DNA of 64,000 nucleotides from assembly GCA_038872135.1 (NCBI GenBank), contig JAVZGN010000002.1, forward strand, positions 1-64,000. The letters are read 5' to 3'. This document shows, piece after piece, positions 2,507 through 35,027 of this stretch (positions within the stretch are counted from its first letter, which is position 1; every line of letters starts with the position of its first letter). The notes under the pieces are model-generated. The model worked only from the letters and a program-made list of their open reading frames with translations. It did not search any database and was not told where the DNA came from. A program made the translations under genes and the position numbers. The DNA is from Candidatus Hadarchaeales archaeon. GTDB taxonomy: Archaea > Hadarchaeota > Hadarchaeia > Hadarchaeales > Hadarchaeaceae.

Positions 2507-2570
2507 CTCTCAAAATGCTTAAATAGGAGGGAAATGAGTGATTTCCGCAAAAAATAGAGAAGGTGATAAA

Positions 2571-5438
2571 GTGAAGTATGGAGCATTGCTAGTGATCGCA
2601 GCCATGTTGATATCGCCGCTTGCGCTGGTGGTATCGGCTGGCACCGTAAGCGCTGCAACAGACATAAGCGTTAGCTTGGATAAGACAAAGGTGAAAGCAA
2701 ACACCGGAGTTGTGCTGTTCATCACTGTGCAGAACACCGGTACCACAGACATTGACAACATTGAAGTAGAGCTGCCGAGCGGCTTTACTCAGGTGAGCCC
2801 AACCAAGCTGATTAGGGCTGACACAGTAGTGTGGAACTGGATCGACAATGTGGTTGTCGTGCCAGCAGACACAATTGTACAAGTTGTAGGAAATAAGGCT
2901 GTCAGATTAGCCGAGAACACTGTGATTACCTTGCTTGCCGGCACTACTGTCTATAGATCTGGCACCGGCTTCTACACTGCACTGAGCACAAATGTTGATG
3001 TCAAGTTGGGAGCAGCGACAACTCCAGCCGTGTCAGAAAACACTTTTGAAAACATCAAGGTTGGGGACAACATTGCCTTCCCTGTGGAAAAGCAAGTAAC
3101 ACTCATCTTTGGTAGTGGTATCAGCAACTTTGACAATACAGTACGGCTGGCCAACGACACCCGAGTTGTGCTGGTAAAAGATAACATATTCAGACTCCCT
3201 GAGAACACTTGGGTGAAGATCATTGGAACAGATAACGCTATTGGCATTTCAGCGGGCGAGAATGTCTTGCTGAAAGTGCCAGAGAATGTTACACTTGCGA
3301 CGACTCTTGCCGACAATCGTGTTACAACAATAGAGGCGAGGAACTGGGGTGGCTTCATAGGTGATCTACCCGCTGACTCTGTCCTTGAGATACCAGAAAA
3401 TGCGGTAGTTCAGCTACCAGTGGGCACAAAAATGGCTTTGGAGAGTCCCCTTGCGATTTCTCTGCAGGAAAACACCTTGGTTATACGACCAAAAGATAAC
3501 CAGTTCACCGCAGCAACCTATGAAAACGAGCCGGACAACTGGGCTCAGTGGGTGAGCGGACAGAGAGTTCAGTGGCAGGGGCTGGGTGCTGACAACAAAA
3601 TCCCTGTAAATGGCTCCCTCGTGTTCCCGATTGCGTTCACCACACCGAACATCAACGATGAAAGGAACTACACAATAAAGGTCAGGGCCAAAGCTAAGGG
3701 TACAACCGCCTATAGTGTTGAGAAGTCCGTCACCCTGATAGTCGACGGCAAGGCCCCAACGCTGGCCATCTCAACCTCAAAGTTCTGGGCAAATGCCAAC
3801 GAGGACATCACCATAACTGTCACGGCCAATGAGCCGCTCGCAAGCCTCGACAACGTAAGAGTCAAAGAGAACAATGGTGACTGGATCCAGCTGACCATGA
3901 GCCCGGCAGACACCGAGAACAAGGTCTGGACCGGGACATACACGACAAGCGACAACGCTGCCAGAGATGGGCAGGCAATAATCCAGGTATGGAATGCCTC
4001 GGATCTCTGTGGCAATAAATCAAACCAGGATAACTGGTTTATGATCGACAGGACTGCTCCAGCAGCGATTAAACTGAGTGATGTAACGGGCTTTCCTGCG
4101 GTCTATAGCACAACTGGCAAGCGCATCACCGACAACAGCCATTACACATTTACCATCTCAATTCCCTACGAGAACTCTGTCCTCGAGCCCGTCAATGGAG
4201 ACAACGTGAGTTCCATCCAAACAGTGAGAATCAGGGTTGGCACAAGCACCACAGACATGGCCCTCATCGGTGGCCTCTGGACGGCTGAAGTAAACCTGCC
4301 GGAGGGCCTCACAGAAATTGGATTCAAGGTGATCGACAAGGCAGGGAACGAAAGCCCTGAGAACGCCGACAATGTCCTCGTGGATTTGACCCCACCATCG
4401 ATCACCATAGAATCCCCAGAGAACGGAGCCCTTCTTAACGACAACACCCCGACCTTCAGGATAATCATAAGCGACGCCACTCTCGGAATTGAAAACAGAC
4501 TTGGATTTAGCCCCGTTGACAACAGCGGGTATACAATCACCCTTTGGAGCGTGACTACTGGAGAGAACCTCGGCTGGCTACGCCCGGTAAGCTACGCTAC
4601 CCTGGACAATGTCTTCACCTGGCAAGCGATAAAGTACTGGGTCTTCGAGAACACCTGGTCGAAAGGACTCGATGGCAACGAGAACAAGTACAGGCTCGTG
4701 GTTGAGGTCGGAGACAACTTCCGCTACGAGAACAAGTGGATAGAGTTCACGATTGACACAGTTCCACCGTCGAAGAACGACATCAGCATCCTCGGCTGGA
4801 CAGGATTGATCGGTTCCCTAACTTCGCCGCAGATGAGCACTAAAACCACATGGCCGATCAGCGGAACGATTCCACCGAAAGAGGTTGGAGGCAAGCTGAG
4901 GATATACGTCAACGGGAGCCTTGTGAGCACCATAGACCTGACATCGACATCCTGGACAGCAAATGTTCCGCTAACACCAGGAACCGCAAACATGATAGAG
5001 CTTCAGCTGGTGGACAGGGCTGGTAACGAGAGCGATAGGCTGCTCTACGGCTACATCCAGCCCGATGCCACAGCCCCGACGGTTACAATAAGTTCTCCAG
5101 CCACCGGCACCGAGACTGACGCCACGGCAATCTTGGTTACAGGCACGGTGACGAAAGACCCATGGGAAAGCTTCAGTGAACTCACCCTGACGCTCCAGTC
5201 AACCACTGGAGGAGCGGTCACGGTCCCGATAGGTTCCGATGGCAGCTTCTCTTGGAGCGTTGCGCTGGGTGAGGGCCTGAACTCCATCACGGTGACGGCA
5301 AAAGACGCCCTAGGGAATGTGAGCGCCCCAGCGACCATCCAGGTGACTCGCAGGGTCACCCCGTGGATGACCTATGCGATAATCCTGGTGATAGTGGCGC
5401 TGATCCTGGCTGCGATCGCAATCTTCAGGAAGAAGTAA
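2571..5438 (+). CDS. Large secreted cell-surface protein (probable S-layer/envelope protein) with Ig-like domains and a C-terminal membrane anchor
   Basis: Signal peptide KYGALLVIAAML...VSA; Ig-like motifs D..P and D.AGN; C-terminal hydrophobic helix followed by RKK. T-rich tract downstream. Confidence 0.8.
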   Translation: MKYGALLVIAAMLISPLALVVSAGTVSAATDISVSLDKTKVKANTGVVLFITVQNTGTTDIDNIEVELPSGFTQVSPTKLIRADTVVWNWIDNVVVVPADTIVQVVGNKAVRLAENTVITLLAGTTVYRSGTGFYTALSTNVDVKLGAATTPAVSENTFENIKVGDNIAFPVEKQVTLIFGSGISNFDNTVRLANDTRVVLVKDNIFRLPENTWVKIIGTDNAIGISAGENVLLKVPENVTLATTLADNRVTTIEARNWGGFIGDLPADSVLEIPENAVVQLPVGTKMALESPLAISLQENTLVIRPKDNQFTAATYENEPDNWAQWVSGQRVQWQGLGADNKIPVNGSLVFPIAFTTPNINDERNYTIKVRAKAKGTTAYSVEKSVTLIVDGKAPTLAISTSKFWANANEDITITVTANEPLASLDNVRVKENNGDWIQLTMSPADTENKVWTGTYTTSDNAARDGQAIIQVWNASDLCGNKSNQDNWFMIDRTAPAAIKLSDVTGFPAVYSTTGKRITDNSHYTFTISIPYENSVLEPVNGDNVSSIQTVRIRVGTSTTDMALIGGLWTAEVNLPEGLTEIGFKVIDKAGNESPENADNVLVDLTPPSITIESPENGALLNDNTPTFRIIISDATLGIENRLGFSPVDNSGYTITLWSVTTGENLGWLRPVSYATLDNVFTWQAIKYWVFENTWSKGLDGNENKYRLVVEVGDNFRYENKWIEFTIDTVPPSKNDISILGWTGLIGSLTSPQMSTKTTWPISGTIPPKEVGGKLRIYVNGSLVSTIDLTSTSWTANVPLTPGTANMIELQLVDRAGNESDRLLYGYIQPDATAPTVTISSPATGTETDATAILVTGTVTKDPWESFSELTLTLQSTTGGAVTVPIGSDGSFSWSVALGEGLNSITVTAKDALGNVSAPATIQVTRRVTPWMTYAIILVIVALILAAIAIFRKK

Positions 5439-5465
5439 GGGGAGAAACGCCCAACCTGCCCCTTA

Positions 5466-5505
5466 CTTTCCCTTTTTATTTTGATTTTCATGTTTTGGGG
5501 TTTTC
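5466..5505 (+). terminator. T-rich archaeal terminator
   Basis: Several oligo-T runs just after the stop at 5438. Confidence 0.5.
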
Positions 5506-5531
5506 CTCAAGGTATGGATTATCTTGAGAAT

Positions 5532-6842
5532 TCATTCGCTCAGTACTTCCCGCAAAATCTCATCTTTAAACAGCAGAAAAGCCCAGAGCGGATAAATTAG
5601 AATTTTTCTATTCCCGATCTCCTTGGATCCAAACTTATCCCAGGTGAGCATGAGGCCGCGATTGAGATTTAATCCCGTAAGTGATTTGACGATGCTCGAG
5701 ATCTCTCGGGTGGATACTTCCGACTTGATTTCAACAGGAATTATGCGCTCGCCCTCAACTAACAGGAAATCTATCTCCCTAGAACCCCTTCGGAAATAAT
5801 ACTTCGCTCCAACTTCGCATCTGAAAAGTGACTCCATGGCTCCCCCACGACCCACCTCTTCAAACTCTACGCCCGAAGCAAAGCTCAACGCAGGAGTTGC
5901 TGGGTAAACTCTCCGGTTTTTCCTAGAAGTCGCCAGCACGCCCGGTCTGAGGTTTGCCACAAGATTCACAAGTAGCGAAAATCGCAGATAATGGGTGTAG
6001 TTCATTATGGTTCTCTTGTTTCGCCCAAGGTCCCTCGCCAAGTTTTCGATGTTCAAAAACATTCCGGGATTTTTGAGGAAGAGATCCCGAAGGATTTCAA
6101 GGAGCTCGATGTCCACGCTGCCGAACTCGAGGGGAATATCCCTGTAAACGATTCGCTCCACAACCGCGGATTTCACATATGCTCTAATTTTTTCATCGTC
6201 CTCTTCCCATAGGAGTTCTGGAAACCCCGCCTTTCTCAGGAAACTGGAGAAAAGCGGCTGGATCTTTCCCGCTAACAGCTCAGCCTCTTCGAATCTCACT
6301 TTCACCCCCTTCATTTCGAGAAACTCCCTAAAAGTCAAAGGTTTCAGCACAAACTCGTAGACCCTTCCGGCTAAGCTCTCCTTCGATCGTTTTGAAAGAG
6401 CGAGTGCGGCGGAGCCCGAGAGGAAGAATTTCAGGTTGGGGTTAAGATCGTAATAAATCTTTACCTTGCTTTCCCAGTCCTCCACCTTGTGAATTTCATC
6501 CAAGAAGATGAACACCCTTTCGCGTTTCTGGAAGTCTCCTCTCAGCACCTCGACCCGGTATGTTTCTAGCACATCCCTGAGATCGGCGCCCCTTTCATCG
6601 AACGAAAAATAAAGGATGTTTTTAGGCTCAACACCTTGGTTCAACAGGTGGTGAATCATCTGGTAAAGGAGAACCGTCTTCCCCACTCTCCTAAGTCCCG
6701 CCAAGAGGATGCCCTGCCTATCAGGGAGGAATTTGAGCAGTTCTGGAAACAGGTAGCGCTTGTACTCGCGATATTGTCTTTTGGGGACTTCTCCTGTTTC
6801 CCACCACTCATTGAATTCGAAAAGTTCCTGCGCTTTCATCAT
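5532..6842 (-). CDS. AAA+ ATPase (AAA_14 + DUF4143, COG1373-like)
   Basis: FNEWW N-terminus, Walker A GLRRVGKT, Walker B FLDEIH, SGSA, ESLAGR, C-terminal EIDF...IPVEIK. Confidence 0.9.
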   Translation of the reverse strand: MMKAQELFEFNEWWETGEVPKRQYREYKRYLFPELLKFLPDRQGILLAGLRRVGKTVLLYQMIHHLLNQGVEPKNILYFSFDERGADLRDVLETYRVEVLRGDFQKRERVFIFLDEIHKVEDWESKVKIYYDLNPNLKFFLSGSAALALSKRSKESLAGRVYEFVLKPLTFREFLEMKGVKVRFEEAELLAGKIQPLFSSFLRKAGFPELLWEEDDEKIRAYVKSAVVERIVYRDIPLEFGSVDIELLEILRDLFLKNPGMFLNIENLARDLGRNKRTIMNYTHYLRFSLLVNLVANLRPGVLATSRKNRRVYPATPALSFASGVEFEEVGRGGAMESLFRCEVGAKYYFRRGSREIDFLLVEGERIIPVEIKSEVSTREISSIVKSLTGLNLNRGLMLTWDKFGSKEIGNRKILIYPLWAFLLFKDEILREVLSE

Positions 6843-7289
6843 AGTTTATTTTAATACCCTAATATTTAAATTTTTAGTGTATTTTTATGCACTAATCAAG
6901 GGAAGATTGGGGTGTTCTATCCGCCACTGGATTGGAATCGTATGATTGCCTCGGGATTTACGAGAAGTGAGAGACTAATTACAGGTGCCTCGCTGAAATT
7001 TGGAGAGGATACCCATGAATAGTGACGACGGCAGGAGAGTAACAACCTAGAGGAGCAACCATATGTTGATGCCGGGCGAGATGGTAATGATCAGGAAGTT
7101 GCGGGAGATGCGCAGATAACTCTAAGAGTACACTTAGCATCGTCCTCCACGTCGGGTAAAAAGGATGTTGAAATCAACTGTGTTATTACTCACCACATTT
7201 CCGCTTTGGATTTATAACTACTGAAATGGAAACAAATCATCATTCGATAAGGTTAAACCCATCAAACAGAAATACTGCCGGGTGAAACC

Positions 7290-9659
7290 ATCAGGCGAGG
7301 ATGGCTGCTACTACCACTTCTCCTTCTCACCGCTCCTGCAGCGGTAGCCCTAGAAGCCCCGTCTCTCTCCATCCCTATAGAAAAAGCCCTCCTGAAAAGC
7401 GAAAATGTCGTCTTCCAATGGACAGTGGTTCCCCAAGCTGACTTCTACCAGCTCCAGTGCTCAACCGACAACTCCTTCACCTCACCAATCACCGTTGACA
7501 ACATCCGTCTAACGTCCACCAGCCTCCTCCTCATGGACGGCGTCTACCACTGGAGGGTCAGGGCAAAAAGGGAAAACGGAGATATTGGCCCATGGTCCCG
7601 GCCCCGCTACTTTATCCTCGATTCAACTCCTCCCCCAGCCCCACTCATCCTCTGGCCTAATAACAATTCCTACCTCAGAGACAACACGATTTCATTTATC
7701 TGGTCCCCCGTGGATGGTGCCTATGATTATCGGTTTATTCTCGACAACGATGAGGACTTCTCCTCCCCCATCCAGAACTTCTTCACTTTCTCTACCTCCT
7801 TCTCCTTCACCCTCTCCCCAGGGAAATATTTCTGGAAGGTGGCCTCAAGGGATTGGCCAAGGAATGAGAATTTTTCACCAGTTTCAACCTTCATCATAGA
7901 CATCTCACCCCCAACCTCTCCCCCTTTGCTATCTCCGGAGAACAACGATAACATAAACACCAAAACTCCAACTTTCTCCTGGGGGGAGTCTGTTGACGGG
8001 TGGGGCGTGAGCTTCTACAGGCTAGTGGTGGACAACCGGGAGGTTAGGGAAACAAGGGGCCTAAGCGATGACTCAATCGAGCTGGCGGAGGGACTTCACA
8101 AGTGGAAGGTGGTGGCGGTGGATCTCGCGGGGAATGAAAACTCCTCCCCGGAGTTCACTTTTTATGTTGACCTGACCCCCCCGAAAGCACCAGACATCAT
8201 TGGGCCAAAAAATGGCGCAGTTCTTCCAACTAAAGGTGTAACATTTGAGTGGACAGAGGTGAGGGACAGAAACTTTCCCACAAACTATGCGCTCTGGATA
8301 GATGAGGACGCAGACTTTTCATCTCCAACTGTGGTAGAGGATATGCAAACCACATTGACGAAAGAGTTCTCATACGGTCGCTACTACTGGAAGGTCTCAT
8401 TCACAAAAGAACTCCCAGATGGACATTACTACTGGAAGGTGAGGGCTGTAGATGATGCCGGAAACAGGGGTGATTTTTCTCAAACACGAACCTTAACTGT
8501 GGACAACACCCCCCCACCGCCTCCACGCCTTCTGTGGCCCCTTGCAAATGTAGAGGAAAACACATTTTCTCCTGTCTTCAGGTGGTCGTCCGTCGAAGAT
8601 ATCACTCCTGTTAAGTATGAAATCCAAATAGCTAAAGACAATGCCTTTTCTTCCCTCGTAGCCACAACGATCACAGAAAACTTGGAAAACAGAACAGAAT
8701 TTCTCCCGGACGGCACCTACTACTGGAGAGTTAGAGCCCTTGACAACTTCAGGGCCGGGGAGTGGTCGGAGAATCTTTCTTTCAAAATAATCTATCGTGA
8801 CTTTTCTATTGTTGTTAGCGAAAGTAGTTTCACGGTGGCGCGGGGAGAAAAAATCTTGGTTGGAATTTCTGGCGTGAAATTCGGCAGCTATGCGGAAACT
8901 GCGACGCTGAGCGCCTCCGGTGGCCCCCCAAACACAGAGTTCACATTTTTTGGCGCCGTTTCCTTCCCATTCGACACCTTCGCGATAATTTACCCTCCCT
9001 CCGACGCCCTTCCGGGAGTTTACACGATTGTAATTACGGCCAAAGACAAAAACCAGTGGATGAGAACGGCGAAGATTTTCCTCAATGTTATCAAGCGCCC
9101 AGACGCCGTCATTTCCCGAATAACCCCAGGTGAAGTAACAACAACCCAGATTTCAAAGCTGGATGTTGCAGAATTAAAAATCGTCTCCTCCGCATTAATG
9201 GAGAACGTCAAAATATATGTGGAAAACGGAGATGTCACTACCCACCCCCATGGCCCGGTCTACTCCTCCTTCAAAATAGAGCACGAAAACCTGAAGGGGG
9301 TAGAATCGGCTGAAATAAAGTTCAGGGTTGACCGGTGGTGGATGAAGAAAAACAAGGTAGATCCGAAGTCCATTACTCTCTGGAGATTCGAGGAGGGGTG
9401 GCAGAAGCTTCCGACAGCCGAGGCCGGAGAAGACGCAACTTTCGCATATTTCTCCGCAACAACACCCTCTCTCTCGACCTTCGCCATAACCTATCAGACA
9501 TCAGAGTTCCCGCTTCTCTGGATCGCAGCAGGGATAACGATGGTTGTTCTTATCGTTGGAATATTTTTCTGGATTAAAGGTGGAGAAGAATTGCCACGAG
9601 AAGGACTACCGAAAACTAAAGAGCGCCCGTCTGCCACGCCAAAGGAAGAGGAGTGGTGA
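7290..9659 (+). CDS. Secreted surface protein with FN3/Ig-like repeats, a PGF-pre-PGF-like domain and a C-terminal TM helix
   Basis: Repeated F.W...Y....D..DFSSP...G.Y.W.V.A.D units; FRV...W...N.VD...I.L.R...GW..LPT...Y.SATTPSLSTFAI; TM helix. The frame extends upstream of 7425 through a signal peptide; start inferred at ATC 7290. Confidence 0.8.
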   Translation: MRRGWLLLPLLLLTAPAAVALEAPSLSIPIEKALLKSENVVFQWTVVPQADFYQLQCSTDNSFTSPITVDNIRLTSTSLLLMDGVYHWRVRAKRENGDIGPWSRPRYFILDSTPPPAPLILWPNNNSYLRDNTISFIWSPVDGAYDYRFILDNDEDFSSPIQNFFTFSTSFSFTLSPGKYFWKVASRDWPRNENFSPVSTFIIDISPPTSPPLLSPENNDNINTKTPTFSWGESVDGWGVSFYRLVVDNREVRETRGLSDDSIELAEGLHKWKVVAVDLAGNENSSPEFTFYVDLTPPKAPDIIGPKNGAVLPTKGVTFEWTEVRDRNFPTNYALWIDEDADFSSPTVVEDMQTTLTKEFSYGRYYWKVSFTKELPDGHYYWKVRAVDDAGNRGDFSQTRTLTVDNTPPPPPRLLWPLANVEENTFSPVFRWSSVEDITPVKYEIQIAKDNAFSSLVATTITENLENRTEFLPDGTYYWRVRALDNFRAGEWSENLSFKIIYRDFSIVVSESSFTVARGEKILVGISGVKFGSYAETATLSASGGPPNTEFTFFGAVSFPFDTFAIIYPPSDALPGVYTIVITAKDKNQWMRTAKIFLNVIKRPDAVISRITPGEVTTTQISKLDVAELKIVSSALMENVKIYVENGDVTTHPHGPVYSSFKIEHENLKGVESAEIKFRVDRWWMKKNKVDPKSITLWRFEEGWQKLPTAEAGEDATFAYFSATTPSLSTFAITYQTSEFPLLWIAAGITMVVLIVGIFFWIKGGEELPREGLPKTKERPSATPKEEEW

Positions 9660-13267: not shown

Positions 13268-14548
13268 ATGTTCGGATGGACGCAGAGGAGGGCCCTCCCC
13301 AAGGACATGCCCCGCCGATTCGCGCTGGAGTCCCTGAGCGAGAAGCCCGTCTCATCCTCAACGACGACTGGAGCCGGTGGTAGGGCCTCGCTAAGAAAAA
13401 TCCTGTTACTTCTGGTTTTTGTCTGCCTCTCACTCATAGTGGCATCTACATTCTTCCGCGGTGGGGAGAGAACGGAGGGGGGTCCTCCTTCGTTTGAGGA
13501 GAGGGAGAACGAGTTCTGGGGTTCCTATCCCGAGCTGGGTGAGGGTCGAGTAACCTACACCGTTGTGCCGGTAGACCTTGAATACATCGAAGAAATCGTG
13601 CCGATCGGAAAGATAGGCACCATCGGCCATCCCATCCCCACCTCGCACACCTATTGGGTATTGGCTAGGAGGGATTTGGGTTTTCCAGAAGACGGTTTCT
13701 CAAAGCCCGTCAGAGCGCCCGCGGACGGTGTGATCACAAAAATAATCTTCACGTATTGGGCGGGCTTCCCAGATTACAACATCTATCTCAGGCACACCAA
13801 CACCTTCATGACGGCATTTTACCATCTCTCGGAGCTGAGCGAGGGAGTGCTGGCCAAAATAGGCTCCCCCCTGCAGGAGGGTCGCACAAACGAGGTATAC
13901 ATTCCGGTGAAGGCGGGGGATGTCATTGGAAAAACATCTTCCAGTATGGGGCAGAGCGCCTGTCTAGACATGGGTGCCTATGACAAGAAGGTGCTGAATT
14001 TCATCCACCCGGAAAAGTATCCTCTGCCACAGCAGCACGCCATTTCCCCCCTGAGCCTCTTCTCGCCCACCCTGCAGGAGAGGGTCTATGAAAAAGTCAA
14101 AAGGACGGCGGAACCACGCGGCGGCGAATGCGACTACGATCTCAGGGGAAAGCTCTCCGGAAACTGGTTCCTGGAGGGGACGGATGGATGCACCGGTGAA
14201 AACGGGTACCAGAACTACATTTCCTTCGGTTACGACGTTTATGACCCGCAGCAGTTGAGGATAAGTTTGGGCTGGAAGTTCCTCGAAGCATTTGGCTTTC
14301 CTTCATGGCTTCCCCCTCTCTCTAGGGTGGAGGGGAATGCTCCGGACTTCAAGAACGTGGGCGTGAGCAGCGGAAGGATCGTCTACAGGCTTTCACCCGT
14401 GAGAGAGGATAACATTGCCCCCCTGCCGGAAACAACGTGTACCCTGTTGGTGGAGATGATGAACGAAGAAAAGATAAGGGTTGAGGTCTTTCAGGGCTAC
14501 ATTCAGAATCCCTCCTTCACCCAGAAGGCGCTGATTTACACCAGGTAG
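13268..14548 (+). CDS. Membrane-anchored exported protein with M23-peptidase-like motifs (start uncertain)
   Basis: N-terminal TM helix; PVRAPADGVI, YHLS and VKAGDVIG resemble the M23/LytM fold; no canonical HxH motif. Confidence 0.6.
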   Translation: MFGWTQRRALPKDMPRRFALESLSEKPVSSSTTTGAGGRASLRKILLLLVFVCLSLIVASTFFRGGERTEGGPPSFEERENEFWGSYPELGEGRVTYTVVPVDLEYIEEIVPIGKIGTIGHPIPTSHTYWVLARRDLGFPEDGFSKPVRAPADGVITKIIFTYWAGFPDYNIYLRHTNTFMTAFYHLSELSEGVLAKIGSPLQEGRTNEVYIPVKAGDVIGKTSSSMGQSACLDMGAYDKKVLNFIHPEKYPLPQQHAISPLSLFSPTLQERVYEKVKRTAEPRGGECDYDLRGKLSGNWFLEGTDGCTGENGYQNYISFGYDVYDPQQLRISLGWKFLEAFGFPSWLPPLSRVEGNAPDFKNVGVSSGRIVYRLSPVREDNIAPLPETTCTLLVEMMNEEKIRVEVFQGYIQNPSFTQKALIYTR

Positions 14549-22012: not shown

Positions 22013-22142
22013 ACTCAGCCACACGATTTACTAAGATGATTTCTGCCAGTTAAGCGGCTATTCTGCATGACTCAAGGCATGCTAGATTCCTCGCCGAACA
22101 GTTGTAAGACTAATGCTATAAATCCAAGGCATCTCAGTGAAA

Positions 22143-23576
22143 ATGATGAAGCGGGAAAAAATGAAGGAAAACTTCAGCGAATGGTTCAATGAGGCTATCG
22201 AACGAGCGGAAATCATAGAAACAAGATATCCAGTCAAGGGGCTCTATGTCTGGCTCCCCTATGGTCTGAAGCTCAGGAACAACATTTTCAGCGTTCTCAG
22301 AAAACTCCTGGAAGACTCGGGGCACAAGGAAGTTCTCTTTCCTCTCCTCATCCCAGAAAACCTATTCAGGATGGAAGCAGAGCACATCCGGGGATTTGAA
22401 GGCCAAGTCTACTGGGTAACAAGAGGAGGTCACGATGAGCTTGATGTAAGGCTGGCTCTGAGACCAACATCGGAGACCAGCATGTACCCGATGTTTTCCC
22501 TCTGGATTCGCTCCCACGCAGACCTCCCCCTGAAGGTATACCAGATTGTCAATGTCTTCAGATATGAAACGAAAATGACCAAGCCGCTGATCAGGCTGAG
22601 GGAGGTCACAACCTTCAAGGAGGCCCACACCGCTCACGCCACCGCAGAAGAAGCCGAGAAGCAGGTGAAAGAAGCCGTGGAGATATACAAGCGCTTCTTT
22701 GAGGAGCTTGGCATTCCATTTGTCGTTACCAAGCGCCCTCGCTGGGACACCTTTGCTGGAGCAGTTTTTTCCATTGCCTTCGACACTCTCTCCCCAGACG
22801 GCAGAACCCTCCAGATAGGCACCGTCCACAACCTTGGCCAGAATTTTGCAAAAGTTTATGACATCAAATATGAGACACCCGAGGGCAGCCACAGTTATGT
22901 TTACCAAACATGCTATGGGATTTCCGAGAGGGCTGTAGCGGCAACGATAATGATTCATGGAGATGACTTGGGGCTATGCCTCCCGCCAAATGTCGCCCCC
23001 ATCCAGGTGGTCATTGTTCCGATTTACTACAAGAGCAATGTGGCGCAAGTGATGGACAGGGCAAAAAGTGTTTACAATGAGCTTGTGAGAGAGGGCCTCA
23101 GAGCCCATATTGACGAGAGGGACCTCCGACCAGGCAATAAATTTTACTATTGGGAAAGAAGAGGGGTGCCGCTGAGAATAGAAATCGGGCCGGAAGATGT
23201 GGCCAACAATCGACTGACGGTGGTTCCGCGCCACACGGGCAAAAGGATGATCATTCCCCTCAAGGATGCCGGCAAAAAAATAAAATCTATGCTCTCAGAA
23301 ATCGGAGAAGAAATGCGCGAGAAGGCAAGAAAAATGTTTCAGGAGTCAATTTTTGAGGTAGCCAATTTGGATGAGGCAAAGGGAATAATTGAAAAGAGGG
23401 GTGGCATTGTCAGGATGTGGTGGTGCGGAAAAGAAGATTGCGGAAAGAAAATCGAGGAAATTACCACTGGAAGTCTTCTTGGAGAGGAGATAGACGGCGG
23501 AGGAGGGGCTACCTCGCCCTGCGTTGTTTGCTCTGGTTCCGGGACAAAGAAAATCTTGGCCGCAAAAACCTATTGA
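22143..23576 (+). CDS. proS: Prolyl-tRNA synthetase
   Basis: FSEWF, RPTSET, FRYETK.T.PLIR.RE, QIGTVHNLGQNF, CYGISER motifs. Confidence 0.97.
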   Translation: MMKREKMKENFSEWFNEAIERAEIIETRYPVKGLYVWLPYGLKLRNNIFSVLRKLLEDSGHKEVLFPLLIPENLFRMEAEHIRGFEGQVYWVTRGGHDELDVRLALRPTSETSMYPMFSLWIRSHADLPLKVYQIVNVFRYETKMTKPLIRLREVTTFKEAHTAHATAEEAEKQVKEAVEIYKRFFEELGIPFVVTKRPRWDTFAGAVFSIAFDTLSPDGRTLQIGTVHNLGQNFAKVYDIKYETPEGSHSYVYQTCYGISERAVAATIMIHGDDLGLCLPPNVAPIQVVIVPIYYKSNVAQVMDRAKSVYNELVREGLRAHIDERDLRPGNKFYYWERRGVPLRIEIGPEDVANNRLTVVPRHTGKRMIIPLKDAGKKIKSMLSEIGEEMREKARKMFQESIFEVANLDEAKGIIEKRGGIVRMWWCGKEDCGKKIEEITTGSLLGEEIDGGGGATSPCVVCSGSGTKKILAAKTY

Positions 23577-28641: not shown

Positions 28642-30879
28642 CTATAGAAGGTCGTGATTCACCCTAATCACTTTAACATACTGGTTGGAGCTGGAAAATG
28701 CAACCACCAGCGATTCATCTCCATCGATTGCACTTCCTGTCGCAACCTCGTATGCTTTTACACCAACCATCTCCATGGGCCTGGCGACTTCTCCAAATGT
28801 CCCTTTAACGAGCCACGCCGTGAGAACATTGTTTCTCTGGTCCATGAAGATAACGAGGATTTCATTTATCTGTGGCGGCTCTGATGATGGAACAAATCCA
28901 CCAAATCCAGAAATTCTTCCATCATTTCCAACCCTAAGCATCGCATACCCATCCAGCAGAAGCCTCTGGCCGTTCTTCTGAACATAGGCGGTGCCGGGTT
29001 CCAGAACAACGGCGGATCTCTCCCCGCCAAAGTTAAATATCAGTTTGTTGTCCTGGGTGGTTGGCCTGAGCTGAGAGGGGGTGATCAACTGTCTATCTCT
29101 GTGGAGGAGGTATAGACCGATAAATTCATTGGTTGCGTAGAAATTCTTTGCCTCCCAATATTGGTCGACGGTGAAAATTATGTAATCTATTTTCACGTTG
29201 TAGTTATCTCGGTAGATTTTCAGCAGCCATTTCAGCTCATCCCGCGCGAGTTTCGGGAACCACTGAACATCGGTTCTGCGGCCGTTGATGGCCCAGGGTT
29301 TTCTGGCGACCGACATTCCATATATCTCGCCGGTGCTGTCAATCCTCCTGTAGATATAGTCTGGAGGCTTAATTGTTGCCGTGTTCTCCCACAGGCCCTC
29401 CTCTCCTGTGCCCTCGACCCCATCGCAGACGGCTGGACGACCGGTTGCCCCGGTGAAAAGGTGACCGAATGACCACTGGATGGCAAAGACAGCGTTCTCT
29501 GGAATATTCTCACGTTCTATCCACTCAAAAGCTTCCATAAGACCTGCGTCGACTCCGGGGCCGCGCCATTCGGTTGGTGGGGAAACCCTTCGTGCTTCAG
29601 CATATGCATTCAACACAAATGGTCCGGTGAACGCCAGTGTGAGGATAATAATGATGAGAGGGCTCTGGAGCTTTTTTAACCACTCCCAGGATGGATCAAA
29701 AGAAAGGTCCTTGATCCATGAGACGATGTATGCGACACCAGCCCCGGCGACCACAGCAACAAACGGCCACCACAGCCTTTCAAATCTTGCCTGCCCGACC
29801 CCCGGCCAGGTCAAACCCAACAGAATAACTATCCAGCCGAGCATCAAGAGTTCATGATTTTTCCTCTTCCACAGGAACATCAGGAGCCCCAGTGCCATCA
29901 TGAGGATTACTATAGAATTAAGAGTTCCATTTCCATACATCTTCCCAAAGACATCATTCCAGGACTCAACTTTCTGTGCCTCGGATGCGTAGATTGGAAG
30001 GGATATTCCTCCTCCGCCCCCAAAGCTTATCCCCACATAACCTAGCAGCGTCTGAGCAAACCCTGTCCAAAATGAGGGATCTCTTCCAAGTGCTAACCAC
30101 TGAACCGCGGTGATGATTAAAAACACACCGATTACCCCCCCGATAAACCACAGGTGCTCCCGGATAGTTTTTTCCAAAGTTCCCAGTGGATCTGATAGGC
30201 TTTTGGCCAGCTTTTCGAAATATCTGAAAACCAGAACGAGCACCGTTGCCCCAATAACCACTGCAAGGAGATACACGCTTCCGGGCCATGTGAACAACAA
30301 TAGACCATAAGACAGCCCACCGAGTAGTGCATAGCCAGGCATTGATTTCTTATCCGACTTGAATAGTTTTATCATCGCAAATATAAACCATGCACCAAAG
30401 AAGATTACCGAAGGTTCTCGGTCAAATGCCCCGGTCTTAACCCAGTAGATTGAAGAGACTAATGTCGCCATGAAAAATGCTGCGGCGGCTCCGGCGATGT
30501 CCCCCTTAAGCTCCCTGCCTATCAAAAAGATGGGGATGAGCGTCAAGGCGTACATTAGAGGAGCAAAAAACTTTGTTACATCGAACAGCGTCAGACTGGG
30601 ATTTAAGACATGGAGCCCGCGATAGATGACGACGGCCAGCAATGGTTGCATGGTTTCGTCCAATCCAATTGACCATCCATAGGGGGCATGAGAAAGGGGA
30701 TTTTTTTCTGGAATTGAATTGGTTTTTTCCATCTCTCTGGCAATACCGTAGACCCAGCCGCTGTCCGAGGTTGTCAAAACCTGGTATTTCTCACCAGGGA
30801 TTGTTAGAATAGAAAAAGACAGCACCATCAATGCAATCAAATATCCCGCTATCAGCCAGCGACGGTAGTTCAACTTCAC
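28642..30879 (-). CDS. aglB: STT3/AglB-family oligosaccharyltransferase with a divergent acceptor site
   Basis: Multi-TM N-terminal half: SD followed by PLSHAPYG, GAFDRE, ASE, ARF. C-terminal domain: EAFEWI...PENA...QWSFGH....TGR...DG and DYII, where the family has WWDYG. Confidence 0.8.
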   Translation of the reverse strand: MKLNYRRWLIAGYLIALMVLSFSILTIPGEKYQVLTTSDSGWVYGIAREMEKTNSIPEKNPLSHAPYGWSIGLDETMQPLLAVVIYRGLHVLNPSLTLFDVTKFFAPLMYALTLIPIFLIGRELKGDIAGAAAAFFMATLVSSIYWVKTGAFDREPSVIFFGAWFIFAMIKLFKSDKKSMPGYALLGGLSYGLLLFTWPGSVYLLAVVIGATVLVLVFRYFEKLAKSLSDPLGTLEKTIREHLWFIGGVIGVFLIITAVQWLALGRDPSFWTGFAQTLLGYVGISFGGGGGISLPIYASEAQKVESWNDVFGKMYGNGTLNSIVILMMALGLLMFLWKRKNHELLMLGWIVILLGLTWPGVGQARFERLWWPFVAVVAGAGVAYIVSWIKDLSFDPSWEWLKKLQSPLIIIILTLAFTGPFVLNAYAEARRVSPPTEWRGPGVDAGLMEAFEWIERENIPENAVFAIQWSFGHLFTGATGRPAVCDGVEGTGEEGLWENTATIKPPDYIYRRIDSTGEIYGMSVARKPWAINGRRTDVQWFPKLARDELKWLLKIYRDNYNVKIDYIIFTVDQYWEAKNFYATNEFIGLYLLHRDRQLITPSQLRPTTQDNKLIFNFGGERSAVVLEPGTAYVQKNGQRLLLDGYAMLRVGNDGRISGFGGFVPSSEPPQINEILVIFMDQRNNVLTAWLVKGTFGEVARPMEMVGVKAYEVATGSAIDGDESLVVAFSSSNQYVKVIRVNHDLL

Positions 30880-31475: not shown

Positions 31476-32039
31476 TTACGAACCCGACTTCATTCTTGAG
31501 CGCAGGGCATCCAAGACTTCTAACACACCGATGCTTTTGGCTCTCTTTCTGAGGTATCTTTCGTCCAATTTTTTACACAGTTCCATCACGCTGATGACAT
31601 CGTGTTCGTCCAACTCGCTCCTGTCCGGCCTTGCAAGCTTGTTGAGGATGAAATCCTCAGGGCCTATGACCCACACTTTTAACCCAGCCGCCACATCAAC
31701 CCGCCAGCGCCTCTTCAGAGCTTCTTTGAAGTTTACTCCGTCGGGCTTGAACCAGAATTCCACATTAGTCTGGTTCTCGAGATCTCCTAGATAAACACAT
31801 GGCGCCCCCGGCTTGAGGCCTGCTGGGAGCTGAAATTTCCTCTTGAGCAGTTCTTCCTCCATTTTCCTGAAAACTTTTGGATTTTTGATGGAAATCGCCA
31901 AGTCTATATCGTAAGTTGCACGGGGCCTGCCGTAAGCGGGTAGTGCGAGACCGCCAATGAGCATGTAGTCAGCGCCCACCCCTTCCAGCACTTCAAGCAG
32001 CTTTCGCAGAGTTTCTAACAGCGCGGACAATTTCATCAA
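31476..32039 (-). CDS. Pol-beta-superfamily nucleotidyltransferase (AbiEii-like putative toxin)
   Basis: YMLIGGLA..AYG.PRATYDIDL, PED.IL.KL, R...D..DV motifs. Confidence 0.8.
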   Translation of the reverse strand: MMKLSALLETLRKLLEVLEGVGADYMLIGGLALPAYGRPRATYDIDLAISIKNPKVFRKMEEELLKRKFQLPAGLKPGAPCVYLGDLENQTNVEFWFKPDGVNFKEALKRRWRVDVAAGLKVWVIGPEDFILNKLARPDRSELDEHDVISVMELCKKLDERYLRKRAKSIGVLEVLDALRSRMKSGS

Positions 32040-32394
32040 GCTCCCAAAGCATTTGATAAGCCGAGCGCCCAGATCTTACCAGCGCCTCCACCTCTTTAGC
32101 CTGCCGAACTGCTTTCTTGACATCGAACAGGCTGGTTCTGAGGCGCAAACGCTCACACTCACGGAAGGTGGCAAGATATTTTTCTCCCAGCTTCGTTAGG
32201 CGAACTATCCTCCTTGGCCTACCGGGGCCGTGTGGTGCCTCCAGCTTGGATTCCACGAGCCCCTCTCGTTCTAACTTACTCAGTTTAACCAAAACTCTTG
32301 CGGGTTTCCAGCCGGTGGCCCCTATCAGCTCTCTTATTCCGCGTTCTCTTTCGCTTATCTTTTCCATGAGCACAACATCATCCATGTTTTCCAA
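31993..32394 (-). CDS. Winged-HTH regulator (putative antitoxin)
   Basis: L.KLE.EGLVES...GPGRPR....LT..G wHTH pattern; overlaps the nucleotidyltransferase gene. Confidence 0.75.
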   Translation of the reverse strand: MENMDDVVLMEKISERERGIRELIGATGWKPARVLVKLSKLEREGLVESKLEAPHGPGRPRRIVRLTKLGEKYLATFRECERLRLRTSLFDVKKAVRQAKEVEALVRSGRSAYQMLWELDEIVRAVRNSAKAA

Positions 32395-32885: not shown

Positions 32886-34187
32886 TCAAGCGAGGGACTC
32901 GTACAGCCGCTGGAACTTTAGCGCTATTTTCTTCCACGAGAATTTTTTCACAACATATTTTCTGGCATTGGCTCCCCAGGTCTTCCTATTCGCCACAGCT
33001 TCTGAAAGAGCCTTTGCCAAAAGCTCCGGAGACCTCGCATCCACGCGCACGCCAACCTTTCTGTTCACAGAGTCATCGACAACTTCCCTCAAACCGCCAA
33101 CATCCCCCACAACCACAGGGCTCCCGGAAGCCATGGCCTCCAGCGCCACTATGCCGAAAGCTTCCTCGGTGGAGGGGAAGCAGCAGATATCTGCAGCCCT
33201 GTAAAGGAGGGGAAGGTCCTGCCTCAAGTCTGCGCTCCTTATGACAACCCTCTTCCTAATGTTTTCTGGCATTGCCTCCCTTATTTTAACAAGTTCATCA
33301 TAGGTGTAGCCATCGAAGCCAAGGATGGCCAGGGAATAATCTTGGTTCTTCTCTGCAAATATCTGGAATGCTTTCAGAAGTCCCTTGTGGTTCTTCTCCG
33401 CCACAAACCTTCCAGTGGAGAGGATGAACGGCTTTGTTATCCCATATTTCTTCAGGACTGTGGCGATCCTCTCTGTATCTGCCTCTGTGGGCGGGGTGTA
33501 GAGGTTTGTGTCTACTCCATTGTAGATCACTTTCACTTTTTTCCTCGGTATCCCATATGCATTTATCACAGACTCGGCAGTCGCTTTAGAAACACAGTGA
33601 ACAATATCAGCATTCTCACACCCCTCTGCCTCCAGCAGCAGCCTCCTGTCCAGAGATCCTAGCCTCGCCCTGACCTCAGTCGACAACCCATGCCTCTCTA
33701 TCTCTTTGAGCAACTCGAGATAATCCACCCCAACTGGCCTCGAGACACTTATGTGGACGGAAAAGACACTCTTGATATCTGGATACTCCTCCTTCAGAAT
33801 TGTTATGGCCTTGGCATTCATCCAATCATGTGCGTGGAGGATTAAATTTTTCCTATTCATGAGAGGCATGAGGGGGAGAACCCTTTCATAAACAACTGTA
33901 CTCACAAAGTCGAATGCATCAATCATGTCAAATGAATGCTCTGCAACCCTGAACATCCGATCATCTTTGCTCCTCCACCTCTCAACCGGAACAGCGTGGA
34001 CATGAACATTCTTCGCGTAATTGAAAGAGATGGTTCGAGGAGAATTCAATGCCCTCACAAAAATCACGCTTTCATGGGGGAGCAGCGGATAGAGATATGT
34101 GACGACTATATCTAATCCACCTGTGTAGAGAACATTTGGGATTGGCGACTGGAACCCGAGCCCCATAACCAACAGAGTTTGCTTCAT
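32886..34187 (-). CDS. GT4-family glycosyltransferase
   Basis: TGGL, HAHDW, IYNGVD, GRF..EKN, PS.EEAFGIVALEAMASG motifs. Confidence 0.92.
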   Translation of the reverse strand: MKQTLLVMGLGFQSPIPNVLYTGGLDIVVTYLYPLLPHESVIFVRALNSPRTISFNYAKNVHVHAVPVERWRSKDDRMFRVAEHSFDMIDAFDFVSTVVYERVLPLMPLMNRKNLILHAHDWMNAKAITILKEEYPDIKSVFSVHISVSRPVGVDYLELLKEIERHGLSTEVRARLGSLDRRLLLEAEGCENADIVHCVSKATAESVINAYGIPRKKVKVIYNGVDTNLYTPPTEADTERIATVLKKYGITKPFILSTGRFVAEKNHKGLLKAFQIFAEKNQDYSLAILGFDGYTYDELVKIREAMPENIRKRVVIRSADLRQDLPLLYRAADICCFPSTEEAFGIVALEAMASGSPVVVGDVGGLREVVDDSVNRKVGVRVDARSPELLAKALSEAVANRKTWGANARKYVVKKFSWKKIALKFQRLYESLA

Positions 34188-34346: not shown

Positions 34347-35027
34347 CTATTCTAACGCAAGCCTCGCAAGCATCTCAAGGTTCCTTATACGCACGAGAGG
34401 CAAATCTTTAGATGGCGTGAAATTTACTGGCTGGGTTTCTGCTATTACGAAGCTGGTAAATCTTCCATCCGCCTTGACCGCCTCGTATTTCTCCTTGAGA
34501 TCCCCGACGGCCCCAAGCCTCCCAGTGGAATCTATCTTGGCGCTAATGACGATATCCTGTCTGACACTGCTCTCCCCGATGTTTTCTTCTTCTCTCACGG
34601 CGGCCAGCATCAGAAGGGCAACTGAAGCGCCCATCGACGGACCAGCAATGCTTGAAGCCATCCCTAGATTTTCCAGACCGATTACAAAATCAACTCTTCC
34701 GAGCCTCTTTCCAACCAACGCTTCTACAGCAGCTCTTGCATCCATCGCTGCTTTTTGAGTGTCCTCATTTTCAAAAGGAGGGACGGCAAAAAGCACCTTT
34801 CCACTGCCATCTCTCATCTCCAGCCACAAACTTCCGAGCCTCCCCCTTCCTGTCATCTGCTCCACCCCAACAATCGTGATCTCTTTTCTTCTCGCTTCAT
34901 TGCCTGAAAGGAGAAGCTCCTCGGGAGGCTCCAGAAGGCTGGTGGCAAATATAGCTCCCACAATCACACCGACGGAGAAGAATGAAACTACAAACATTGC
35001 CAGCGGAGATTTCCTTTTCCTCATCAC
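34347..35027 (-). CDS. Membrane-anchored Lon-type (S16) protease domain protein
   Basis: N-terminal TM helix; IAGPSMGA (Ser) and G.LGAVG.LKEK (Lys) dyad motifs; no ATPase domain. Confidence 0.75.
   Translation of the reverse strand: MMRKRKSPLAMFVVSFFSVGVIVGAIFATSLLEPPEELLLSGNEARRKEITIVGVEQMTGRGRLGSLWLEMRDGSGKVLFAVPPFENEDTQKAAMDARAAVEALVGKRLGRVDFVIGLENLGMASSIAGPSMGASVALLMLAAVREEENIGESSVRQDIVISAKIDSTGRLGAVGDLKEKYEAVKADGRFTSFVIAETQPVNFTPSKDLPLVRIRNLEMLARLALE

Follow-up and report, generated by a model that had tools for sequence, protein, structure and literature searches.

An excess of acidic residue-asparagine pairs in Hadarchaeota surface proteins and a divergent AglB homologue that may read them

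Introduction

Why should more than half of the asparagines (Asn) of a cell-surface protein stand directly after an acidic residue? The question is raised by a gene at positions 2571-5438 of 64,000 nucleotides of DNA from Candidatus Hadarchaeales archaeon (assembly GCA_038872135.1, contig JAVZGN010000002.1, positions 1 to 64,000), a stretch called the window in what follows. The gene encodes a surface protein of 955 amino acids (aa) in which Asp-Asn and Glu-Asn, together written [DE]N, occur far more often than expected. In the explanation that we favour, selection acts on the pair as one unit of two residues, in those parts of Hadarchaeota surface proteins that face outwards. The same window holds a divergent homologue of AglB, the archaeal STT3-family oligosaccharyltransferase (OST), which is a candidate for the enzyme that reads it.

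An excess of [DE]N in the surface protein

The 955-aa protein contains 70 Asn, 20 of them after Asp and 19 after Glu, giving 39/70 [DE]N (56%), or 39/71 if translation begins at an alternative, longer GTG start at 2538. Asp and Glu make up 10.3% of its residues, for which 7.2 pairs are expected. Shuffling the whole protein 20,000 times gave a mean of 7.2 pairs (standard deviation 2.4, maximum 19) and never 39. Block shuffles, which keep the local composition (blocks of 10-30 residues, four block sizes, 5,000 shuffles each), gave means of 8.5-10.0 and a maximum of 22, and 39 was reached in 0/5,000 at every size. No other dipeptide is as strongly over-represented in the protein as EN and DN, and ND, NE, DD, EE and NN are not enriched. 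An artefact of composition, global or local, is thereby ruled out. The pairs are encoded by seven different hexamers, the pattern GANAAY, present 39 times in frame 0 of the gene, is missing from frame 1 and has 4 occurrences in frame 2, and the gene contains no tandem DNA repeat. The signal therefore lies at the level of the protein, and a cause at the level of DNA, whether a repeat or a hexamer bias, is ruled out as well.

The pairs are concentrated in the distal part of the protein. An N-terminal solenoid-like region (Table 1) has 16 [DE]N among its 22 Asn (2.6 expected) and the following array of Ig-like domains has 22 among 38 (4.4 expected); the last pair is at N721, and the final 234 residues have none. 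The canonical sequon for N-glycosylation, N-X-S/T, occurs 11 times and coincides with [DE]N only at N239 (ENVT) and N545 (DNVS). In the cytoplasmic prolyl-tRNA synthetase of the window (ProRS; 22137-23576), 2/15 Asn are [DE]N. A sequence-only reading of the window had estimated about 39 of about 71 Asn after Asp or Glu (~55%), a far lower random expectation, only two pairs that were also sequons, none in the last ~220 membrane-proximal residues and about 2 of 15 Asn for ProRS, and on counting all of this stands.

The excess among exported proteins

Exported and other proteins were compared in a crude set of open reading frames (ORFs) from the window and four loci of Hadarchaeota metagenome-assembled genomes, L001-L004 (~127 kb). 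In the ten large ORFs that combine a signal peptide with an anchor, in every one of which the signal recurs, 388/688 Asn are [DE]N where 81.6 are expected (4.75x), against 82/635 in the 100 other ORFs, where 77 are expected (1.06x). Asn without a preceding acid make up 2.8% of residues in the exported set and 2.05% in the others. As these proportions are about equal, the extra Asn of the surface proteins are essentially all [DE]N. The excess is thus restricted to exported proteins, in a form of the comparison of secreted with cytoplasmic proteins proposed in the sequence-only reading that covered ~127 kb.

The five close homologues of the 955-aa protein have 30-45 [DE]N each, 51-69% of their Asn. 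A profile search for the family returned 9097 proteins at E <= 1e-3, and the best 150 of these were examined; they include ~45 full-length representatives (clusters). When 39 family members are pooled, EN is enriched 5.3x (780 vs 147) and DN 4.5x (757 vs 170), the next dipeptide reaching 2.3x. Among the best 150 matches, family-like proteins of ~900-1300 aa have observed-to-expected ratios of roughly 2-7, mostly 4-6, whereas in giant Ig-repeat proteins of 2000-7800 aa, which match by way of the same domains, the ratio is mostly 0-1.9 (exceptions are P0051 at 3.1 and P0055, of 1289 aa, at 2.7). Bacterial proteins built from the same Ig-like domains are, by this count, free of the excess, and a general property of Ig-like (Big) domains is ruled out by the giant proteins.

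The pair also occurs in excess in other exported folds. A second exported protein of the window, with fn3/Ig-like repeats, has 20/37 (4.8 expected, counted from position 7425), and its orthologues have 28/47 in L001 and 30/50 in L003. A 1448-aa protein of L003 has 14/32 in its Kelch region (3.9 expected), 5/11 in its CBM96 region (1.5 expected) and 1/6 in its stalk (0.5 expected), and in the Ig-like parts of a 2302-aa protein of L001 50-79% of Asn are [DE]N. Since the pair is enriched in the solenoid, the Ig-like array, fn3-like, Kelch and CBM96 domains and the external domain of the OST itself (see below), the excess is not tied to one fold, and yet it is not universal in exported domains. 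On absence from other secreted folds, which the sequence-only reading had named as a finding that would speak against a modification motif, the outcome is mixed: the pair is enriched in several such folds, but a subtilase domain shows it only weakly and the stalk of the 955-aa protein lacks it.

Two smaller membrane-anchored proteins of the window may be mentioned, with small numbers in each: a 226-aa protein with a weak Lon_C-like match (34347-35027, minus strand) has 3/6, and an M23-peptidase-like protein (13268-14548) has 3/13, leaning the same way.

An oligosaccharyltransferase without WWDxG

In the reviews, all AglB, PglB and STT3 proteins are said to contain WWDYG/WWDXG (PMC2952790; PMC11407970), and N-X-S/T with WWDxG is treated there as universal for N-glycosylation across life's three domains. 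WWDYG together with the DK/MI motif forms the Ser/Thr pocket (PMC8342417). The sole STT3 match in the window is a 745-aa protein (PF02516 over residues 74-259, scoring 49.8 bits where the cutoff is 24.5), which phmmer also matches to human STT3B (E 1.8e-7) and STT3A (E 1.3e-6). Where WWDxG should stand it has QWSFGH. In a 93-sequence alignment the pattern xWSxG[HS] is found in 91 sequences, a clade with [QE]WS[FY]GH, minor variants and one EWAIGH, and WWDFGH only in the two outgroup AglBs; the flanks N-TP.N...FGHLF...R are conserved, and WWD.G occurs nowhere else in the 91 clade members. HMMER likewise pairs QWSFGH with WWDYGY of human STT3A/B, a local stretch that is not significant on its own. 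Wherever they are named, the members of the clade are Hadarchaeales, Hadarchaeota, Hadesarchaea or MSBL1, save two stray labels, and the next matches beyond it are far weaker (E 2e-5 and worse). The divergence that the sequence-only reading ascribed to AglB is thus borne out as a replacement of WWDxG by [QE]WS[FY]GH, with minor variants, in 91/91 clade members.

The catalytic acidic motifs are conserved across the clade as LTTSDSG, FDRE (aligned to STT3 FDNE) and YASE. They correspond to the set formed by the first-loop Asp, DxD/DxE and the EL5 Glu of TIXE/SVSE, the pattern A-S/x-E being kept in the clade. Some 62 residues after the WS motif lies a conserved I-N-G-R-R-x-D (residues 531-537), which may be equated with the DK motif by spacing only; in principle, an acidic residue might be recognized by the pair of Arg conserved in it.

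The external domains of these enzymes provide a reciprocal control. All 5 [DE]N of the window's enzyme sit in this domain. In the external domains of 90 WS-type Hadarchaeal enzymes, 710/1828 Asn are [DE]N against 245 expected (2.9x), and N-X-S/T occurs 190 times against 221 expected. In those of 120 canonical WWD[FY]G AglBs, Methanobacteriaceae-type where named, 435/4462 Asn are [DE]N against 315 expected (1.38x), and N-X-S/T occurs 1858 times against 930 expected (2.0x). In this homologous domain, canonical sequons have built up in the lineage whose pocket is canonical, and [DE]N in the one that lacks it; the comparison is of two lineages and not of 210 independent points, since the members of each set are related to one another.

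About half of the Hadarchaeal AglB homologues (P0163-P0238, 1000-1190 aa) carry a C-terminal fusion of Ig_Rha78A_N and Big_13, the same domain types as in the second surface protein of the window; the 745-aa enzyme of the window has no such fusion. A gene for a GT4-family glycosyltransferase lies 2 kb from the AglB homologue and may serve in glycan assembly. Between the two, an ORF for a DUF6036 nucleotidyltransferase overlaps a small upstream ORF (31476-32394, minus strand) in a layout that resembles a toxin-antitoxin-type pair.

Anatomy and turnover of the pair

The make-up of the pair was examined in 41 full-length family sequences. Asp and Glu interchange at most conserved columns (for example 13/14, 25/14, 11/11 and 23/14), and a few columns have a fixed acid, such as E in 40/40 at column 694 and D in 31/31 at column 716. 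The signal is directional and specific to Asn: [DE]D is found at 0.6-0.9x and [DE]S and [DE]T at 0.4-0.7x of expectation, so the site is not a general Asx or hydroxy-residue site, and these ratios rule that candidate out. QN, KN and NN are found at about 0.5x, and the reverse pairs ND and NE stand at 0.7x and 1.4x.

Pro follows Asn at only 8/1603 [DE]N sites, against 55/1121 other Asn. Of the 1603 [DE]N, 10% have Ser or Thr at +2, where the figure is 21.9% for other Asn and 18.6% for the background, and N-X-S/T as a whole is not enriched in the family (391 observed, 486 expected; 0.8x). Gln (2.5x), Tyr (1.9x) and Arg (1.7x) are over-represented at +2 after [DE]N, where Ser/Thr are halved, and Phe, Gly and Pro are favoured at -2; these preferences may form an extended context of the motif.

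At least one [DE]N is found in 248 columns of the alignment. When columns with an occupancy of at least 50% are removed, 643 [DE]N remain against 148.9 expected, and when those with at least 10% are removed, 221 remain against 74.5 expected, a part of which may be alignment slippage in both cases. In such rare columns the frequency of an acid at -1 among the remaining sequences is just that of the background (0.11-0.16 vs 0.129).

Architecture of the surface protein

The gene begins with GTG, and the starts of homologues likewise directly precede the hydrophobic core of the signal peptide, in which the motif SVSA is invariant. The C-terminal helix and tail are nearly invariant too. The named homologues are from Candidatus Hadarchaeum or Hadarchaeaceae, with 35-40% identity by BLASTP and 38-43% in alignments. 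Pfam finds only Ig-like families (Glucodextran_B at residues 836-927, Big_13, and Big_12 at 392-485). An AlphaFold2 model from a 66-sequence alignment reached a mean pLDDT of 85.8, against just 62.3 from a 6-sequence alignment. It places a small Ig-like domain at residues 31-81 ahead of the solenoid-like region, and further Ig-like domains up to residue 927 before a helix at 932-952. Foldseek against the Protein Data Bank (PDB) returned generic multi-Ig chains, including the Nitrosopumilus S-layer protein 8c8m (E 2.3e-12, TMq 0.22) and SbsC.

The layout of archaeal S-layer proteins (signal peptide, large ectodomain, C-terminal anchor) is that of the 955-aa protein. With the low-TM multi-Ig resemblance to the Nitrosopumilus maritimus S-layer protein (NmSLP) and SbsC, and the conservation across ~45 clusters, it makes the identification as an S-layer protein, called probable in the sequence-only reading, plausible rather than proven.

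Table 1. Positions of the main features within the window
Feature	Positions	Strand	Basis
Surface-protein gene (probable S-layer or major envelope protein), 955 aa	2571-5438	+	Signal peptide, ectodomain, C-terminal membrane anchor
Putative Shine-Dalgarno-like GGTGAT, 3 nt 5' of the GTG start	2562-2567	+	Sequence reading
Signal peptide, residues 1-28, end ...VSA/ATD	2571-2654	+	Sequence reading and hydrophobic segment
Solenoid-like region, residues 84-322, ~23-residue repeats with three short strands each	2820-3536	+	AlphaFold2 DSSP and pLDDT, repeat register, family consensus
Ig-like array, residues 323-735 (Big_12; OmpL47-type match)	3537-4775	+	Pfam and model
Two membrane-proximal Ig-like stalk domains, residues 736-930 (Glucodextran_B / Big_13)	4776-5360	+	Pfam
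C-terminal transmembrane helix and basic tail, residues 931-955	5361-5435	+	Model helix 932-952
Second exported protein, fn3/Ig-like repeats (Big_13, Ig_Rha78A_N, SusE-like), C-terminal anchor	7257-9659	+	Pfam
STT3/AglB-type OST homologue, 745 aa, multi-pass membrane part and external globular domain	28642-30879	-	Pfam STT3
QWSFGH, residues 468-473, at the position of WWDxG	29461-29478	-	MAFFT column against WWDFGH outgroups, conserved flanks
GT4-family glycosyltransferase, possible glycan-assembly gene	32886-34187	-	Pfam Glycos_transf_1 3.9e-32; role from neighbourhood

Glycosylation or structure

The reading that we favour, and that seems to us to fall only a little short of probable, is that [DE]N is the acceptor site, or the core of the acceptor site, of a Hadarchaeota-specific OST without a Ser/Thr pocket. 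The enzyme would keep the catalytic acidic motifs of STT3/AglB and would have exchanged WWDxG, the reader of Ser/Thr at +2, for [QE]WS[FY]GH, and what marks an Asn for it would be a negative charge at -1, in place of the hydroxyl at +2. In the 955-aa protein the distal ~700 residues would bear about 40 glycans and the two stalk domains would stay bare, and Asn would have to face outwards at about a dozen repeat-signature sites of the solenoid. We infer an active enzyme, its recognition of [DE]N and a modification of the Asn. A wider proposal, that Hadarchaeota and their MSBL1-type relatives have re-coded N-glycosylation so that the sequon is [DE]-N-{P} instead of N-X-S/T, the acid at -1 is read and the WWDxG pocket is lost, is advanced more tentatively, as a possibility worth keeping in view. 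It would mean about one glycan per 17 residues, an in-register row of glycans along the N-terminal solenoid and a bare membrane-proximal stalk.

Several observations weigh against glycosylation, and the strongest of them, which concerns about 12 sites, lies in the solenoid. Its ~23-residue repeat has the family consensus.DN.VvLPAGT.V.L..n.nv.l, and in the model residues 84-322 form strands of 3-5 residues, one every ~8 residues and three per repeat. About 12 [DE]N are in register there, one per repeat, directly before every third strand. The Asn of these 12 columns is present in 24-39 of 41 sequences, and where it is replaced it is mainly by D, G or T, as at left-handed turns. In known solenoids, Asn in register form a buried ladder. 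The hxLxxNxV (LxLxxNxV-like) pattern resembles the Asn-ladder signature of leucine-rich repeats (LRRs), and the parity of N-x-V-x-L suggests that the Asn face inwards. An OST acting on the unfolded chain would modify such Asn, so that their burial would be blocked. Assignment of the solenoid to a known family was not obtained: residues 84-322 had no Pfam match to LRR or beta-helix families, Pfam and NCBIfam at E <= 1 giving only DUF7372 (E 0.085); phmmer of residues 84-345 against the PDB gave just non-significant matches, including the LRRs of GPIb-alpha (E ~1); an Atlas search of residues 84-345 gave no usable feature match and structural matches with TM < 0.3; and Foldseek against the PDB did not classify it on either the 6- or the 66-sequence model. 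A plain ladder, however, fails to account for the acid that precedes the ladder Asn in about 90% of cases.

Other points tell in the same direction. At 18/39 sites of the 955-aa protein, [DE]N is found in all five close homologues despite only 38-43% identity, against 5/31 invariant among its other Asn, and 29 columns are at least 50% conserved as [DE]N among the 41 sequences. For glycosylation sites this is a high degree of conservation. At conserved columns the acid is often retained where the Asn is lost (D 40/40 and N 31 at column 716; E 36 and N 31 at column 434; acid 34 and N 26 at column 212) and so has a role of its own there. The stalk has 0/7 [DE]N in the 955-aa protein (0.6 expected) and 31/464 in 66 aligned sequences (47 expected), against 2787/4319 in the distal part of the same sequences (568 expected), and the Peptidase_S8 (subtilase) domain of the 2302-aa protein has 2/10 (0.9 expected). 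The two-lineage nature of the reciprocal comparison counts here as well. A second, canonical AglB may exist elsewhere in the genome, of which 64 kb was covered. Mutation of WWDYG abolishes glycosylation in the enzymes studied (PMC2952790), so the WS-type enzyme could be inactive or could use another acceptor.

The main alternative, which we regard as possible but less likely, is that the pair is a structural or cation-binding motif and that the change in AglB is unrelated. Asn would take left-handed or capping positions at strand starts and would form a buried ladder in the solenoid, with the carboxylates at the surface lining up as acidic stripes that bind Ca2+/Mg2+ or make lattice contacts. 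The whole would be a building habit of the beta-rich ectodomains of this lineage. The register of the solenoid sites, the D, G or T replacements, the retention of the acid where Asn is lost and the 18 invariant sites all fit this, as does the weakness of the pair in the alpha/beta subtilase domain. When mapped on the model, as the sequence-only reading had suggested, [DE]N lie mostly in pre-strand loops or at strand starts, 24/39 being from two residues before a strand to its second residue, with about a dozen in solenoid register. The other Asn hold similar positions nearly as often (14/31) without an acid, so that location alone does not distinguish [DE]N. The protein also has PEN strings, a nearly invariant NDNTP (residues 623-627) and a weak Ca_tandemer match in the profile scan; the strings resemble the Ca2+ motifs of cadherins. 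No Cadherin or RTX match was found by Pfam in the 955-aa protein.

Much of the anatomy described above sits badly with structure or metal binding as the whole explanation. Free interchange of Asp and Glu, as seen at most columns, is unusual for metal ligands, and a general Asx site should have admitted [DE]D. Homologous bacterial Ig-like domains and the OST domain of canonical lineages do without the motif, as do the Ig-like stalk domains of the very same protein. At non-conserved positions there is still a 3-4x excess, acid and Asn arriving as a unit, and neither what the WS-type enzyme recognizes nor why N-X-S/T is not enriched would be accounted for. Neither of the two inferences made in the sequence-only reading is proven, then, but each has gained: the modification motif from the WS-type AglB, from the export specificity across folds and from the reciprocity to N-X-S/T, and the structural or Ca-binding turn from the ~12 in-register solenoid sites and the acid kept when Asn is lost.

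A modification or other chemistry at the pair by an enzyme other than AglB would produce the same motif-like statistics as glycosylation by AglB; it could concern the Asn or the Asp/Glu, cross-linking, or protection from heat damage. We consider it improbable. The window yielded no candidate enzyme, and apart from the altered AglB no lineage-specific enzyme feature was found. Lys-Asn isopeptide bonds were dropped as an idea as the repeat consensus has no conserved partner Lys. Protection from deamidation is judged unlikely: it should favour Pro at +1, yet Pro is tenfold depleted there, and the residue at -1 has little effect on deamidation.

Less probable still, and in our view a minor possibility, is inheritance without present function, through duplicated repeat units or domains that carried [DE]N and were copied through the surface-protein repertoire: the solenoid does consist of internal repeats with one consensus, and Big_13, Ig_Rha78A_N and Glucodextran_B modules are common to the surface proteins, but there is no repeat at the DNA level, the sites survive at ~40% identity amid diverged surroundings, the excess is still seen at positions that are lineage-specific and non-homologous and in non-homologous folds, the globular domain of the OST included, it is absent from stalk domains of the same type, and the patterns of conservation and turnover already point to selection on the dipeptide.

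Comparison with known systems

Glycosylation at [DE]N would share with canonical archaeal N-glycosylation by AglB an STT3-family enzyme with conserved catalytic acidic motifs, a glycosyltransferase gene nearby, S-layer-like or exported proteins as would-be targets and the exclusion of Pro at +1. It would differ in having [QE]WS[FY]GH for WWDxG, N-X-S/T at 0.8x, and Ser/Thr depleted at +2 after [DE]N. The sequon of Campylobacter PglB, D/E-X-N-X-S/T, also has a negative charge upstream as a recognition element, with D and E equivalent (PMC2952790; PMC4894442); in the present motif the acid occupies -1 instead of -2, and Ser/Thr at +2 is not required. PglB itself keeps WWDYG (PMC2952790).

Archaeal N-glycosylation that can do without Ser/Thr at +2 has a precedent in Asn-2 of the Halobacterium salinarum S-layer glycoprotein. 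A 1998 study by Zeitler et al. reportedly deals with this site. It is a single site, with no acid reported at -1, unlike the many considered here. The tolerance of Asn-2 to loss of the sequon Ser is presented in PMC2952790 as unexplained variation.

The solenoid of the 955-aa protein resembles Asn-ladder solenoids (LRRs with LxxLxLxxNxL, and pectate-lyase-type beta-helices) in its ~23-residue repeat, its in-register Asn after hxLxx and its three strands per turn. It is unlike them in having no Pfam match, in the acid before the Asn in about 90% of cases and in the enrichment of the same dipeptide outside the solenoid. To our knowledge, an acid before the ladder Asn is not required in LRR and beta-helix families. 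A precedent for in-register sugars on a solenoid might be sought in densely glycosylated beta-helical adhesins of bacteria, namely HMW1 with its N-glycosylation and AIDA-I and TibA with their heptosylation. These systems use cytoplasmic glycosyltransferases, with N-X-S/T or Ser as acceptors. NmSLP (PDB 8c8m) is, like the 955-aa protein, a chain of Ig-like domains, but the TM-score is low, many unrelated multi-Ig proteins are equally similar, and the resemblance found is one of fold. In the literature searched (Hadarchaeota S-layer and oligosaccharyltransferase, AglB motifs, archaeal non-canonical sequons), neither the [DE]N motif nor a WS-type AglB is described.

Neighbouring genes

Genes for surface proteins lie in clusters: an S-layer-like gene is followed, in the window as in L001 and L003, by one for an fn3/Ig-like protein of ~800 aa, the clusters spanning 2571-9659 in the window, 1352-15255 in L001 and 2286-12253 in L003. 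Giant exported proteins lie near them, the 2302-aa subtilase fusion in L001 and the 1448-aa Kelch/CBM96 protein in L003, and in the window a gene for an AAA_14/DUF4143 ATPase (5532-6842, minus strand) stands between the two surface-protein genes.

The start of the second of these genes is odd. A signal-peptide-like stretch (RRGWLLLPLLLLTAPAAVA) lies 5' of the first ATG, GTG or TTG of the ORF, at 7425. Between the preceding stop codon (7254-7256) and that stretch there is no standard start codon, ATA, CTG and ATC being present, and a short ATG-started ORF begins at 7226 in another frame. The arrangement at 7257-7424 suggests that translation begins at a non-standard codon, or else that there is a frameshift or an error of assembly. 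Far from these genes lies a riboflavin cluster, in which two adjacent genes of the DMRL_synthase family (61781-62675, plus strand; 158 and 137 aa) come after those for DHBP synthase and a CTP-dependent riboflavin kinase.

Significance

If a whole archaeal phylum does mark its surface proteins at [DE]N by means of the WS-type enzyme, a natural sequon independent of Ser/Thr could for the first time be assigned to an identifiable clade of enzymes. The prediction of glycosylation sites in uncultured archaea would change, and the pair would offer an orthogonal two-residue acceptor tag for glyco-engineering. If the pair is structural instead, it would represent an unreported, lineage-wide design rule for heat-stable, beta-rich ectodomains, in which an acidic stripe runs beside an Asn ladder.

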